NCBI GenBank assembly: GCA_041690395.1
Contig: JAWLHJ010000003.1
Span: 632,729 to 696,728, forward strand
Direction: 5' to 3'
Length of the DNA: 64,000 nucleotides
From: Longimicrobiales bacterium
GTDB lineage: Bacteria > Gemmatimonadota > Gemmatimonadetes > Longimicrobiales > Gaopeijiaceae
In this document: one piece after another, positions 1 through 4,266 of the stretch
Layout: every line of letters starts with the position of its first letter
How positions within the stretch are numbered: position 1 is the first letter of the stretch
Program-made: the position numbers and the translations under genes
The notes under the pieces: generated by a model
The model's input: only the letters and a program-made list of their open reading frames with translations
Told to the model about the DNA's origin: nothing
The model's database searches: none

Positions 1-1
1 A

Positions 2-967
2 GTGGCCCCAACCGGAGTAGATCGCCGCGCCGATCACCCCCTGGCGCCCCTCTTCCTCGAGGCGGTACCCCATGTGCGCACCGTACCAGTCCATCTCGCG
101 CCACACCAGCGGGTCGGCACCGGGCCGCACCGGCTCCGCATAGGGCGGGATGTACATGCGGGCGGTATAGCCGCCCATCTGGTGATGATCGATGAAGGCC
201 TGCGGTATCCAGTCCCGGAACAGGATCTCCGCGCCGTACTGCGACTCGACCGTGGCCTGCATGAACGCGTCACGGTTGTTGTCGTGCCCGATGTAGTGAT
301 GATAGAGCTCGGGAGGGCGCGTCGTCTCGTACTCGGTGCCGACCTGCTGCCGGTACCAGTCGGTGACGATGTGGTTGCCGTCCGGATTGAACATCGGGAT
401 CTGGATGGCCACCGTCTCGTCGAGGATGCGCATCATCTCCTCGTCGTCGCGCGTCGCCATCTCGTAGAGGATCTCGACCGACGCCTGACTCGGCGCCACC
501 TCGGTCGAGTGCAGCCCGTACGACTGGACGAGAACGACCTTGCCCCGCTCCACAGCGTCGTCGATCTCGGCCTGGCTCCGGCCGCGCGGGTCCTGCAGGA
601 GCGCGTTCAGCCGCTGGATCTCGTCGAGGTTCGCCAGGTTCTCGGGGCTCGAGACGAAAATCACCAGGAACGGGAGCCCCCGGGTGGACGTGCCCACGTC
701 ACGGACCTCGATCCGGTCGCTCCGCTCGCCGATCATCTCGTAGTACGGAAGCATCTCGTCCCACCGCACCAGCTGCCGGTCTGCGCCCATCACGTGGCCG
801 AAGTACTCCTCGGGCGACGGGATGGCCTGCGCGGCCGCGGACGCGACCGTGGCCAGGCTCAGCGCGACGGCCAGCGCCAGCACGGAAGCCGAGCGCAGGG
901 TATCAGCCGCGCCTCGCTGCAGCGGTCGGAGAAGTCGGTTTCGTAGGGCCCTGGGGCTCGAAATCAT
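2..967 (-). CDS. M14-family zinc carboxypeptidase/peptidase, secreted (3' end runs off the window)
   Basis: Translated by hand (not in the ORF track): ATG 967 with GGAG upstream, signal peptide (..ATVASAAAQ), 'IPSPEEYFGH', 'GLHSTE', 'NPDG', 'YHHYIGHDNNRD', 'DHHQMG', typical of bacterial M14-like peptidases. Confidence 0.85.
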   Translation of the reverse strand, partial: MISSPRALRNRLLRPLQRGAADTLRSASVLALAVALSLATVASAAAQAIPSPEEYFGHVMGADRQLVRWDEMLPYYEMIGERSDRIEVRDVGTSTRGLPFLVIFVSSPENLANLDEIQRLNALLQDPRGRSQAEIDDAVERGKVVLVQSYGLHSTEVAPSQASVEILYEMATRDDEEMMRILDETVAIQIPMFNPDGNHIVTDWYRQQVGTEYETTRPPELYHHYIGHDNNRDAFMQATVESQYGAEILFRDWIPQAFIDHHQMGGYTARMYIPPYAEPVRPGADPLVWREMDWYGAHMGYRLEEEGRQGVIGAAIYSGWGH

Positions 968-1071
968 GGAGGTACTCCGCGATCGGTCTGGGGTTGAGGT
1001 CCCTTCGGGATAACGTCTTCGGCCCACGGATCGCAAGTGGCGCGCTTGTGCTTCGCGCCGATTCCGGACAT

Positions 1072-1109
1072 GAGAAAGCCCCGCGGACCAGGTGGCCCGC
1101 GGGGCTCTC
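1072..1109 (-). terminator. Intrinsic terminator downstream of tRNA-Asn
   Basis: Minus strand AGCCCCGCGGGCC-ACCT-GGTCCGCGGGGCT followed by TTCTC. Confidence 0.75.
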
Positions 1110-1115
1110 GCATTA

Positions 1116-1188
1116 CTGGGGCGGGAGGGTTCGAACCTCCAACCTCCTGGTTAACAGCCAGGCGCTCTGCCGGTTGAGCTACACCCCA
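1116..1188 (-). tRNA. tRNA-Asn(GTT), CCA not encoded
   Basis: Cloverleaf: acceptor TGGGGTG/CGCCCCA plus G73; D arm GCTC-AACCGGCA-GAGC; anticodon arm CCTGG-CTGTTAA-CCAGG; T arm GGAGG-TTCGAAC-CCTCC. Confidence 0.97.
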
Positions 1189-1240
1189 TACGCTTGGCGG
1201 GTTCGTGCCGATGACCCCCGCCGATCGACACTCCCCCACC

Positions 1241-1279
1241 AACGCAAAACGGCCGCGATCCCCTGGGGACCGCGGCCGT
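1241..1279 (-). terminator. Attenuator (3:4) intrinsic terminator between the Asn leader peptide and tRNA-Asn
   Basis: Minus strand ACGGCCGCGGTCCC-CAG-GGGATCGCGGCCGT-TTTGCGTT (14-bp stem with one G-U, U-rich tail). Confidence 0.75.
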
Positions 1280-1302
1280 CTCGTCGTTCCGATTTCGTTC
1301 GG

Positions 1303-1380
1303 CTACGCGAGTCCGCGGTCGCAGTCCCCATTGGGATTGCGATTCATATTCGGATTCGAGTTGCCGCGCGTGTTGTTCAT
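1303..1380 (-). CDS. Putative Asn-rich leader (attenuator) peptide MNNTRGNSNPNMNRNPNGDCDRGLA
   Basis: 25 codons, 8 Asn (3 AAC, 5 AAT); ATG follows a -10 box after a 6-nt gap (leaderless); followed by alternative hairpins and tRNA-Asn. Confidence 0.75.
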   Translation of the reverse strand: MNNTRGNSNPNMNRNPNGDCDRGLA

Positions 1381-1386
1381 GCACCG

Positions 1387-1415
1387 ATTATCACGAGGAG
1401 GGTCCGATCCGTCAA
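1387..1415 (-). promoter_or_regulatory. sigma70-type promoter of the leader-tRNA-Asn transcript
   Basis: Minus strand TTGACG (1415-1410), 17-nt spacer, GATAAT (1392-1387). Confidence 0.75.
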
Positions 1416-1424
1416 GCCGTCTCT

Positions 1425-2405
1425 CTATCCGCCCGTCTGGGACAGCGCCACGAGCCCACCCGACCCGACCGCGCTCCCCTGGACCAGATGGTGCCGCTCG
1501 GGCTTCACCCGCAGCGTCTCCTCGATCAGCGGGCGGATGTCGTCGCCGGCGCGGAGCGGGTCGCGGAGATTCGTCTGGAGCGACCCGAACAGGCACGGGC
1601 GTAGCTGCCCGTCGGCCGTGAGACGCATGCGGTTGCAGCGGTCGCAGTAGTTGTGGCTCATCGGGGTGATGACACCGACGGTGCCGGGCGCTCCCGGGAA
1701 GCGATGATAGCGTGCGGGTCCGTTCCCGAACGGCCCGTCCACCGGCTCGAGCTGTTCGATGGCGCGCACCCGCCTGAGCGCCTCGGCGCACGACACGAAG
1801 CTTCCGGCGCTCAGGTCGAGGTTCGCCCCCGTCGGCATCATCTCGATGAAACGGATGTGCCAGGGTCGCTCACGCGTGATCCGGGCGAAATCCTCGATCT
1901 CGTCGTCGTTCTGACCCCGGATGAGCACGACGTTGATCTTGATGGGCGCGAAGCCCGCTTCCTCGGCGGCCCGGAGCCCGTCCATGATCTTGGGATACGA
2001 GCCCGGACGCCGCGCGATCTCGTCGACGCGGTCGGGCCGGAGCGAGTCGAGGGACACGTTCAGCCGGTGGACGCCCGCGGCGCGTAGCGCGTCGGCGTGC
2101 TCCGCGAGCAGCACCGCGTTCGTCGACAGCGAGAGATCCTCGATCCCCGGCACCCTGGACAACATGGCCGCCAGCTCCGGAAGGTCGCGGCGCACCAGCG
2201 GCTCGCCCCCCGTGATCCGAACCCGCTTGAGCCCCATGCCGGCCATCGTGCGCACGATCCGCTCGATCTCCTCGTAGCTCAGGAGCGCTTCGCGCTTCAA
2301 CCAGGGCAGCCCTTCCATGGGCATGCAGTACACGCAGCGGAGGTTGCACTTGTCGGTGACCGAGATCCTCAGGTACTCGACGCGGCGTCCGAACTGGTCG
2401 ATCAC
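1425..2405 (-). CDS. moaA: GTP 3',8-cyclase (Moco biosynthesis, radical SAM)
   Basis: DQFGR..YLRISVTDKCNLRCVYCMP, CDRCNRMRLTADG, C-terminal GG; GTG start overlaps the moaE stop. Confidence 0.95.
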   Translation of the reverse strand: MIDQFGRRVEYLRISVTDKCNLRCVYCMPMEGLPWLKREALLSYEEIERIVRTMAGMGLKRVRITGGEPLVRRDLPELAAMLSRVPGIEDLSLSTNAVLLAEHADALRAAGVHRLNVSLDSLRPDRVDEIARRPGSYPKIMDGLRAAEEAGFAPIKINVVLIRGQNDDEIEDFARITRERPWHIRFIEMMPTGANLDLSAGSFVSCAEALRRVRAIEQLEPVDGPFGNGPARYHRFPGAPGTVGVITPMSHNYCDRCNRMRLTADGQLRPCLFGSLQTNLRDPLRAGDDIRPLIEETLRVKPERHHLVQGSAVGSGGLVALSQTGG

Positions 2406-2872
2406 GATGCGTCTCCCGTCGTCGCGGTCGCGGACGCTCCGCCGGATCCCGGCGGCGCGGTCCCCTCGACCCAGCTCGCCTCGCCGTCCACATAGCGCTC
2501 CTTCTTCCACACCGGAAGGCGCTTCTTGATCTCCTCGATGACGTACCGGGACGCCTCGTACGACTCGGCCCGGTGGGGGCTCGACACCGCGATCGCGACA
2601 CTCACCTCGCCGATGGCCAGCTCGCCGGTGCGGTGCACCACGGAGAGCCGGTCGGTCCCGAGCGTCTCCGCGGCCTCGCCGGCGATCTCACGCAAGACGC
2701 CGCTCGCCATGGCCTCGTACGCCTCGTAGTGCATGCCCCGCACGGAGCGGCCGTCCGCGTGGTTCCGTACGACGCCCAGGAACAGCAGCACCGCCCCGTC
2801 CTCGTCGGAGCCGACGTGGGCGAGGACCCGCTCCGGGTCGATGGGGTCGGATTGCACGACGGCGCGCACCAC
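2402..2872 (-). CDS. moaE: Molybdopterin synthase catalytic subunit
   Basis: GAVLLFLGVVRN, YEAYEAMA, HRTGEL, HR, PVWKKE motifs. Confidence 0.95.
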   Translation of the reverse strand: MVRAVVQSDPIDPERVLAHVGSDEDGAVLLFLGVVRNHADGRSVRGMHYEAYEAMASGVLREIAGEAAETLGTDRLSVVHRTGELAIGEVSVAIAVSSPHRAESYEASRYVIEEIKKRLPVWKKERYVDGEASWVEGTAPPGSGGASATATTGDAS

Positions 2873-2875
2873 GGC

Positions 2876-3127
2876 TCAGCCCCCCGCCACCGGAGGTATG
2901 AACGCGACCTCGTCGCCGGCCGACAGACGCTCGTCGGGTCCCGCGTAGGTCTGGTTCACGGCGACGGCCGGCTGCTCGGGGAGCCCGTCGAAAGGCGCTC
3001 CGCGGTCCCGGAGGCTTCGCACCAGATCCCGCACGGTCGCGTCCGGCGCCACCTCCACGGACAGCTCGGACGTGCCGAGCAGGTCACGGTAGGCGGCGAA
3101 GAACAGCGTTCGGACGGAAAGGGACAT
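2876..3127 (-). CDS. moaD: Molybdopterin synthase sulfur carrier
   Basis: 83 aa, AVN..Y, 'DEVAFIPPVAGG'. Confidence 0.95.
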   Translation of the reverse strand: MSLSVRTLFFAAYRDLLGTSELSVEVAPDATVRDLVRSLRDRGAPFDGLPEQPAVAVNQTYAGPDERLSAGDEVAFIPPVAGG

Positions 3128-3217
3128 GTGGCCCGGGCGGATGGAGGGTCGCGGTGCGGCCGACCGGCGCCGTGATCACGCCGGTCACCTTCAGAGTGAG
3201 GGACCCCGAACCGGCGG

Positions 3218-3799
3218 TCAACGTTCCGCCGCGCCGCCCTTCCCGGAATGTCCGGACGATTCCCCACCGGGCCGCCTCCGCCTTTCGTCCTCCCCACCCC
3301 GGTTCCGGATGGCCCGGATGCGTCGCCCGATCTCGACCCTCAACTCGTACAGCTGCAGAACCTGGGCGGGCGACAGAACCTCCTGGAGACGTGCCTGCTC
3401 CTCACGGACGAGCTCGGCCTCACGGAGCCGGAGCGCCACGAAGTGCTCGAGTAGCGCGGCCGAGGCGGAGTCGTCCGGCGTCTCGGCGGCGAGGAGCTCC
3501 TCCGCGCGTTCTTTGGCCTCCCGCTCCTCCCGCGCCAAGGCGTGACGCCTGACCTCGTACTCCCGTGCGATGGCCGACAACTCTTCGGCCTCCTCCTCCG
3601 TCAATCCCAACCGGTGCTGGATGATCTCGCCCATCCGGGCCCGTATCCGCTCCTCGAGCCGCGACCGGTCCTGCCCCTCCCTGGGCCGATCCGGCGTGCG
3701 CTGAGCCGACAGCGGGACGGAGGACGCGGCGAGCATGAGCGCTCCGGCCAGCACGAGAAGCCGGGTCGTCGAGCGGCCCACGTTCGAGCCGCGCGTCAT
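3218..3799 (-). CDS. Secreted helical Spy/CpxP/heavy-metal-sensor-like protein of the ECF module
   Basis: Signal peptide (..LAASSVPLSAQ), 'LGLTEEE', 'LSPAQ' (LTxxQ-like) repeats; ATGA overlap with the anti-sigma gene. Confidence 0.6.
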   Translation of the reverse strand: MTRGSNVGRSTTRLLVLAGALMLAASSVPLSAQRTPDRPREGQDRSRLEERIRARMGEIIQHRLGLTEEEAEELSAIAREYEVRRHALAREEREAKERAEELLAAETPDDSASAALLEHFVALRLREAELVREEQARLQEVLSPAQVLQLYELRVEIGRRIRAIRNRGGEDERRRRPGGESSGHSGKGGAAER

Positions 3800-4266
3800 G
3801 AGCCACCACCTACGTCGGCGAGATCCGCGAGCAGCGCTTCGAGCGCGTCGTCGGAGAGATCCTCGAGCACGACGGAGCCGGCGACCGTGCCTTCCCCGAG
3901 TACCCAGGGCCAGCCCTCCTCGACCTCCATCGCGAACGCAGGGGCGACAACGCCGACGCCGTCGCCGGACGTGAGCCCGATCCCCAGCGCCAGAGCGGCC
4001 ACGGCGGCCGCGGCCATCGCCCACCAGGGACGATGGACAGCCTGCCGGTCGAACGCCACGGCGCGCCGGACCCGCGTCGCCAGGTCGTCGGCCGTCGTCG
4101 GTCGGGACTCGAGAAGCGCGCGCACCAACGCCAGCTCTGCGTCGCACTCCGCGCAACTCGCGACGTGCGCCTCGAGCCGGACGCGCGCGTCGCCGGCGAG
4201 AAGTCCGTGCACGAGCTCGGGAATCGCTTCCCTCACCACACCGCAATCGATCGCATTCATGTTCAT
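3796..4266 (-). CDS. Zinc-finger (ZAS, zf-HC2) anti-sigma factor with TM helix
   Basis: HVASCAEC (HxxxCxxC), one hydrophobic helix, coupled to the sigma gene. Confidence 0.85.
   Translation of the reverse strand: MNMNAIDCGVVREAIPELVHGLLAGDARVRLEAHVASCAECDAELALVRALLESRPTTADDLATRVRRAVAFDRQAVHRPWWAMAAAAVAALALGIGLTSGDGVGVVAPAFAMEVEEGWPWVLGEGTVAGSVVLEDLSDDALEALLADLADVGGGS

Follow-up and report, generated by a model that had tools for sequence, protein, structure and literature searches.

Comparison of a bacterial locus with its relatives indicates that a probable asparagine-sensing attenuator in Gemmatimonadota is a real and conserved element, and that it would depart from the classical kind in having a tRNA gene as its target. 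The locus lies in a 64,000-nt stretch of DNA from a Longimicrobiales bacterium (hereafter, the window; its genome, G000, is 98% complete), and the gene concerned encodes a distinct tRNA-Asn(GTT), which we call type-2. In the explanation that we favor, and to which we assign as a whole a probability of about 0.6, the attenuator would induce an Asp-like tRNA-Asn that serves the synthesis of Asn on tRNA. The regulatory part of this explanation, a ribosome-mediated transcription attenuator, appears highly probable from the sequence comparisons; given the attenuator, it is a good supposition that type-2 feeds an AspRS/GatCAB route. In the proposed mechanism, a ribosome would start at the 5'-terminal AUG of a short leader ORF and, when Asn-tRNA is scarce, would stall on the Asn codons (64% of which are the wobble codon AAU), upstream of an RNA segment (segment 2) that could then pair with segment 3 before segment 4 is synthesized, allowing the polymerase to read through into the tRNA. 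When Asn-tRNA is ample, the ribosome would cross the last ~9 codons and cover segment 2, and segments 3 and 4 would form a terminator. The single AspRS would then aspartylate type-2 and GatCAB would amidate the product, restoring Asn-tRNA, while the ordinary tRNA-Asn would be charged by AsnRS.

The preliminary description of the window had placed six elements on its minus strand (a promoter, a leader ORF, a hairpin 1:2, an antiterminator 2:3, a terminator 3:4 and a tRNA gene with its own terminator), and a base-by-base check found all six at the claimed coordinates. The predicted promoter consists of a -35 hexamer at 1410-1415, whose T-G-A is invariant across 21 aligned leaders, and a -10 hexamer at 1387-1392, whose A at position 2 and T at position 6 are likewise invariant. 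This promoter-like site (1415-1387) was the sole one in positions 1-3000, where shuffles gave an expectation of 0.3, which is weak evidence alone. Transcription is predicted to start at, or adjoining, the ATG of the leader ORF (1303-1380), which would hence be leaderless. The ORF comprises 25 codons and a TAG stop, with 8 Asn (5 AAT, 3 AAC) within codons 1-17; its peptide had no Pfam match, and homologous ORFs occur at 40 non-redundant loci. Segment 1 (1333-1342) covers Asn13-Pro16 and pairs with segment 2 (1316-1329) to give hairpin 1:2 at 1342-1319 (-12.7 kcal/mol). By folding and alignment, segment 2 is the 5' arm of the antiterminator and an imperfect repeat of segment 4, and its pairing with segment 3 (1265-1283) comprises 12 Watson-Crick pairs, 1 GU pair and 1 mismatch (duplex, -24.9 kcal/mol). 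Pairing in the alignment makes segment 3 both the 3' arm of the antiterminator and the 5' arm of the attenuator terminator, which segment 4 and its U-rich tail (1241-1262) complete (3:4 core, -28.9 kcal/mol); helices 2:3 and 3:4 exclude each other. The tail is short, with four U in a row, and a terminator scan missed this hairpin. Against 200 shuffles, the folding of the leader had a z-score of -6.19. The spacer between terminator and tRNA (1189-1240), which is 4-98 nt in homologs, folds as a hairpin and contained no promoter-like site in the promoter scan. The type-2 gene follows at 1116-1188, bearing U1-A72, G2-C71, G3-C70 and G73, and 3' of it lies a terminator-like hairpin (1070-1112, -36.6 kcal/mol). 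Both flanking genes are also on the minus strand: moaA (1425-2510; preceded by moaD and moaE), which ends 10 nt upstream of the -35 hexamer with no terminator in between, and a gene for an M14 zinc carboxypeptidase downstream (2-1036); neither is kept beside the element elsewhere. Among the 12 RNA runs listed, none contained more than 7% of the words, and the contigs from four of them lay outside the ORF and terminator; they included one near-identical contig, at 1103-1238, which as a single contig was not treated as evidence. In an Rfam search of positions 1-4000 and of eight loci, only tRNAs scored above threshold, with no T-box and no leader family.

Across the whole genome, 266 leaderless short ORFs lie behind a -35-like motif, and just two of these combine an amino-acid run with a terminator, namely the Asn leader before tRNA-Asn and a His leader before hisG. 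The latter (L533:53-133; C2:746952, outside the window) is leaderless and has 6 His codons, 5 of them consecutive, followed by a terminator. Since the two leaders have the same build, classical attenuation is likely used in this phylum. No other Asn leader (e.g., before gatCAB, aspS, or asnS) was found among the genome's seven short ORFs with at least 4 Asn in 12 codons. Three similar short frames on minus strands (C2:567548, C2:455183 and C3:182010) end in an Asn run and a CxxC-like tail, and are probably the ends of paralogous genes. Terminator-like hairpins with U tails also occur directly 5' of genes for tRNA-Tyr (C5, 596078) and tRNA-Phe (C1, 919669), upstream of which no amino-acid-rich ORF was found. 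The genome further contains a cluster of 17 tRNA genes (C1:919395-922679) and, on C3, a selenocysteine tRNA.

To count leaders among relatives, we required an ATG, 18-28 codons, at least 3 Asn and a hairpin of -8 kcal/mol or lower with a T-rich tail, and left out loci with <250 nt upstream or a run of N. Leaders were present at 15 of the 113 type-2 loci from a sample of genomes drawn without selection, at 26 of 104 in the family (whose loci were partly retrieved via similarity to the window) and at 10 of 36 in a phylum sample. Their union is 40 non-redundant Gemmatimonadota loci, the window included, with 39 different peptides and a common layout of promoter, leaderless 19-27-codon Asn-rich ORF, antiterminator, terminator and tRNA-Asn. 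No leader was found at 44 ordinary tRNA-Asn loci. The leader is thus present at only about a quarter of the type-2 loci of the family, and many leader-free type-2 loci show a -35-like motif shortly 5' of the tRNA. The type-2 pattern is estimated to have 430 loci in the genome collection; of the 119 that were retrieved, 115 are assigned to Gemmatimonadota taxa. One genome, G014, carries two type-2 copies, one with a weak leader of 3 Asn (L012 and L257 are the two loci) and one with none. At three other loci (L143, L116 and L179) the terminator and spacing are retained while the Asn codons are down to 0-2 or the ATG is missing; these are possibly decaying leaders.

The alignment of 21 leaders shows little or no variation in the -35 core, the two key -10 bases, the position of the ATG and the TAG stop. 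The distance from -35 to ATG is mostly 35 nt. Asn codons, frame and stems are kept while the leader sequence drifts. Within the last 21 codons of 31 leaders, there are 144 AAY and 7 AAR codons, and of 149 Asn codons in the leaders 96 (64%) are AAT, compared with 10.5% in 1,540 long ORFs of the window genome, a single-genome baseline. Asn alternates with variable residues. Asn codons have a 6-nt spacing in many leaders, and in several leaders adjacent Asn codons interrupt this period. Because the intervening residues are variable, a role for the peptide as such is unlikely. Several loci were left out of particular counts: L094, which lacks a terminator, and L002, whose leader is identical to that of L001, from the codon, naked-RNA and footprint counts; L116, which has no ATG, from the codon and footprint counts; and L175 from the naked-RNA folding only.

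The three helices are retained to different degrees in the 21 aligned leaders. Terminator 3:4 was paired in 96.6% of cells, with 5 pairs changed on both sides, and antiterminator 2:3 in 89.6%, with 4 pairs changed on both sides, whereas helix 1:2 was the weakest of the three (78.2%, 2 pairs). The value for 2:3 includes an extra conserved helix just 5' of the stop, overlooked in the first reading, in which segment 2b (1308-1311) pairs with 1283-1280 and lengthens the antiterminator; it was paired in 87% of cells, with one pair changed on both sides. None of 500 shuffles matched the observed number of cells changed on both sides and slid controls reached at most 53% pairing, a comparison in which the structures, having been drawn on the window sequence, are favored over their slid versions and in which the aligned sequences are kin. 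Leaders from other orders have different stem sequences and pairing that is identical in kind. Taken singly, segment 2 was better than its own shuffles at p < 0.05 in just 19 of 34 loci. The preliminary description had anticipated an Asn-rich short ORF with covarying stems in related genomes, and such ORFs are present at the 40 loci, with changes on both sides in both 3:4 and 2:3 among the 21 aligned leaders; its main proposal, an Asn-sensing, ribosome-mediated attenuator on a tRNA gene, is supported by the conservation of ORF, Asn codons, promoter spacing and stems. As naked RNA, the leaders preferred 2:3 over 1:2, and the antiterminator had a median probability of 0.87, while in the full transcript at equilibrium 3:4 beats 2:3, so that read-through needs kinetics. 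The switch is therefore likely a kinetic one, set by the position of the ribosome during synthesis of segment 4.

We modeled the effect of the ribosome by folding 31 leaders up to the terminator loop at equilibrium, with a footprint of -15 to +9, +11 or +13 placed at each codon. The median energy holding segment 3 was 13.1 kcal/mol with the ribosome at the Asn codons, 4.5 kcal/mol at the minimum after the last Asn, 7.0 kcal/mol at the stop and 8.5 kcal/mol without a ribosome. The Asn value exceeded the minimum by more than 5 kcal/mol in 29 of the 31 leaders, and the drop came a median of 1 codon past the last Asn (range, -5 to +6), i.e., the Asn block ends where the ribosome begins to cover segment 2. 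In this equilibrium model, the regulatory codons of the 31 leaders lie where a ribosome stalled on them would not yet cover segment 2. The claim in the preliminary description that segment 2 is masked by a ribosome at the stop is borne out only in part. At the stop, 25 of the 31 leaders showed a difference of more than 3 kcal/mol, and the window genome is not among these; its values (16.1 at the stop vs. 17.7 kcal/mol) amount to almost no masking there, because segment 3 is held in the model by the 5' portion of the ORF that the ribosome has left. With segment 2 situated 15-23 nt 5' of the stop, equilibrium folding has it masked best by a ribosome on the codons following the last Asn, which points to passage over the last ~9 codons as the main masking event.

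The surroundings of the leader support the tRNA gene, and not a biosynthetic or synthetase operon, as the putative target of attenuation. The tRNA is the leader's sole constant neighbor. Upstream neighbors vary (moaA, mdh, and others, including divergent genes), with mdh the usual one in the family (L007:1795-2733 and about a dozen loci), and downstream genes differ in kind and strand and often lie beyond a hairpin. In 11 of the 40 leaders, the terminator ends 4-12 nt 5' of the tRNA, which leaves no space for a separate tRNA promoter. Moreover, several sister genomes have the same promoter after mdh, straight before the tRNA, and the leader is absent.

The regulated tRNA is not the only tRNA-Asn of the genome. 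A second gene in G000, for an ordinary tRNA-Asn(GTT), is leader-free and has a promoter immediately 5' of it; the two genes align with a score of 51 of 73. U1-A72, G73 and the lack of an extra D-loop base are found in both, while type-2 has G2-C71 and G3-C70 where the ordinary tRNA has C2-G71 and C3-G70. The body of type-2 shows strong conservation and a distinct make-up (A15-U48), and the gene scores as a normal tRNA (70 bits). G2-C71 is given as a minor Asp determinant that is conserved in bacterial tRNA-Asp, C38 as a strong Asp determinant, and U1-A72 as the GatCAB determinant, in the accessible part of PMC9976931. C38 occurs in the type-2 tRNAs of three genomes (L252 in G199, L247 in G241 and L253 in G254), two of which also have U32. 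Derivation of type-2 from tRNA-Asp was unsupported, tRNA-Asp being outside the seven nearest other tRNAs by overall similarity.

The gene content of G000 is that of a bacterium that could make Asn on tRNA. It encodes a single AspRS, AsnRS, GlnRS, GluRS, GatA and GatB, and a gatC was recognized by eye upstream of gatA; neither AsnA nor AsnB was found in this genome, in which a weak match to Asn synthase proved to be MnmA. According to the portions available of two papers (PMC4206432, PMC2330236), genomes with AsnRS, GlnRS and GatCAB and without Asn synthetase make Asn on tRNA. The presence of type-2 followed that of canonical gatB: among 251 family genomes, which as kin are not independent, 106 had both, 2 had the tRNA only, 22 had gatB only and 121 had neither. 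Three genomes with fragmentary matches to canonical gatB were counted as positive, and for one of the 108 type-2 matches (G212) the identity as a tRNA was not confirmed. A divergent GatB-like match was the only one in 15 genomes, which were scored as negative; scoring them as positive changes the table to 106/2/37/106. The GatB_N-like proteins of these 15 (e.g., G093, G016 and G217; E about 1e-34 to 1e-43), in which type-2 is absent, are mostly long frames of about 700 aa. A recheck of 10 of the 22 gatB-only genomes found no type-2 in any, and five near-complete gatB-negative genomes had ordinary tRNA-Asn only. AsnRS was found in 230 of the 251 genomes, which led us to reject a lack of AsnRS as the reason for constitutive type-2; an ordinary-type tRNA-Asn matched in 176 of the 251, and GlnRS was present in 93 of 101. 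One GlnRS (L036:1294-3843) has a long C-terminal extension that by eye resembles a YqeY/GatB tail. All 25 tabulated leader genomes have gatB, and 21 of the 25 have an ordinary tRNA-Asn. AsnB-like genes are too widespread to be decisive, being found in 64 of 128 genomes with gatB, in 93 of the 123 remaining ones and in 9 of the 25 with a leader.

Beyond the family, type-2 was counted in 112 genomes of the class, which are again related by descent, so that p-values computed from such counts are too strong. It was present in 16 of 22 genomes with GlnRS and gatB, in 23 of 65 with gatB and without GlnRS, and in 1 of 6 with neither, whereas it was present in none of the 19 with GlnRS and without gatB, which cover several families. 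It was also in none of 19 genomes from other classes, 12 of which have GlnRS and gatB. For these phylum counts, which include G037 and G330 (flagged unpublished, one row each), a strict type-2 pattern (28 of 131) was replaced by a looser version (40 of 131). Among 11 AspRS proteins, the anticodon-domain motif did not differ between 6 gatB-positive and 5 gatB-negative genomes. We take this motif to be discriminating-like; its constancy would fit a tRNA-side solution, which it does not show. The preliminary description had read the system as a feedback loop on tRNA supply. The tRNA as target stands, but that reading overlooks the ordinary tRNA-Asn with its own promoter, the regulated gene being a distinct isoacceptor that tracks gatB. 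We prefer a role in synthesis because more tRNA would aid an Asn-starved cell only if it feeds synthesis.

The attenuator evidence is equally compatible with type-2 being just a spare isoacceptor, in which case stalling would raise total tRNA-Asn and the link to gatB would reflect shared ancestry. The AAU bias would sense the level of tRNA as well as its charging, 22 gatB genomes of the family have no type-2, and on low-GC contigs of no relation, 10 of 54 loci selected by pattern carry an Asn-run ORF in front of a tRNA-Asn gene, the acceptor stems of these genes being varied. However, an extra tRNA charged by AsnRS would presumably give no relief of an amino-acid shortage, type-2 is absent from 121 of 123 family genomes without canonical gatB and from all 19 class genomes with GlnRS and without gatB, and the leader is at none of the 44 ordinary loci; together these render a mere spare unlikely. 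Some specialized tRNA isoacceptors serve cell-envelope or peptide-modification roles, and an Asn-sensing attenuator could likewise control a type-2 that carries Asp or Asn to such a non-ribosomal process. The conserved, distinct body (A15-U48) would agree with this role, but type-2 scores as a normal tRNA and tracks gatB rather than a neighboring transferase, its neighbors varying freely, and we consider the idea very improbable.

Two further readings question the sensor itself. Since naked RNA folds as the antiterminator, any lagging ribosome would permit read-through, and the leader might sense general translation speed or the coupling of polymerase and ribosome, with Asn codons, spaced at 6 nt in many leaders, serving to keep the RNA unstructured or to form an A-rich protein-binding repeat. 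Against this, AAY is used to the near exclusion of AAR (144 vs. 7) with both AAT and AAC in use, several leaders have Asn codons side by side, which disrupts the 6-nt period, and the amino acid matches the downstream tRNA just as His matches hisG in the same genome; we give such a general sensor very little credence. That the hairpin merely terminates the upstream operon, the ORF being incidental and the tRNA having its own promoter or a downstream gene being the target, seems the least probable of all. The proximity of moaA to the -35 hexamer, with no terminator between, and the short U tail would suit it, as would the RNA contig at 1103-1238, which we do not take as evidence. Nevertheless, the element is retained whether moaA, mdh or another gene lies upstream, and also where neighbors are divergent, 11 of the 40 leaders end within 12 nt of the tRNA, sister genomes keep the promoter right before the tRNA where the leader is absent, and at many loci a hairpin follows the tRNA, beyond which the genes vary.

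If the favored explanation, an attenuator inducing a tRNA for Asn synthesis, is true, classical attenuation would cover a tRNA gene and asparagine as well, and the two routes to Asn-tRNA would be divided and regulated by a dedicated, inducible tRNA and not by enzymes, which is testable. For synthetase specificity, a non-discriminating aspartylation brought about by the tRNA would be new, and leaders before RNA genes may form a class that gene-centered surveys have passed over. A broader generalization, about which we are evenly divided, is that Asn decoding is split in Gemmatimonadota between an ordinary tRNA for AsnRS and an Asp-like tRNA that makes AspRS and GatCAB an Asn pathway, that this pathway is switched by attenuating the tRNA gene, and that tRNA-Asn attenuation maybe arose more than once in bacteria. 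Outside the phylum, a metagenome pattern that required an Asn run and a T tract, and so gives no estimate of prevalence, had 117 matches, including 54 tRNA-Asn loci, of which 10, on low-GC contigs, had an Asn-run ORF, 7 of these with a hairpin. At L315, L345, L373, L382, L393, L401 and L405, low-GC contigs of unrelated sequence carry a tandem-Asn mini-ORF, a hairpin and a tRNA-Asn. Their leaders have tandem Asn runs, in contrast to the alternating Asn of the Gemmatimonadota leaders, and the contigs in part support the occurrence of the layout outside Gemmatimonadota.

Within the titles and abstract openings searched, a scope outside which most subscription journals fall, no attenuation of a tRNA gene and no Asn leader peptide was found, and the term 'tRNA gene' is absent from the main text of PMC2965389 as available. 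In the accessible text of a survey of actinobacteria, the attenuators are those of trp, trpS and leuS, and an ilvB leader of similar appearance in Streptomyces was unresponsive when its codons were swapped (PMC1262725). The system described here resembles the classical attenuators (trp, his, phe, thr, leu, and ilv) in its short ORF rich in a single amino acid, its alternative antiterminator and its GC-rich terminator with U tail, and, as in those, the putative target is tied to the sensed amino acid. It differs in the tRNA-gene target, the use of Asn, the leaderless ORF, the alternation of Asn with variable residues, the location of segment 2 inside the ORF, upstream of the stop, and the lack of a match to an Rfam leader family. 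Attenuation is the mechanism of control at pheM-pheST and an Asn T-box is found on the clostridial aspS-gatCAB operon; pheM-pheST controls a synthetase, and here it would be the tRNA substrate that is controlled. The pheM-pheST attenuator of E. coli, named in the available text of PMC1262725, shares with ours the control of a component involved in charging tRNA with the sensed amino acid. Similarly, the polycysteine sORF attenuators of mycobacteria use a leaderless short ORF as an amino-acid sensor and, in the part of the report at hand, gate the ribosome-binding site of a protein gene (bioRxiv 10.1101/834739), in contrast to the intrinsic terminator and RNA product here. Read-through at T-box riboswitches likewise follows the charging state of one tRNA; however, T-boxes bind uncharged tRNA directly, the window shows no T-box match, and in PMC2494555 no T-box was found before the genes of the amidotransferase. 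Finally, tRNA-dependent Asn synthesis of the Bdellovibrio type involves the same set of AsnRS, GlnRS, one AspRS and GatCAB, without Asn synthetase and with U1-A72; in the available portion of its description (PMC4206432) no separate or regulated isoacceptor appears, whereas here a distinct tRNA tracks gatB.
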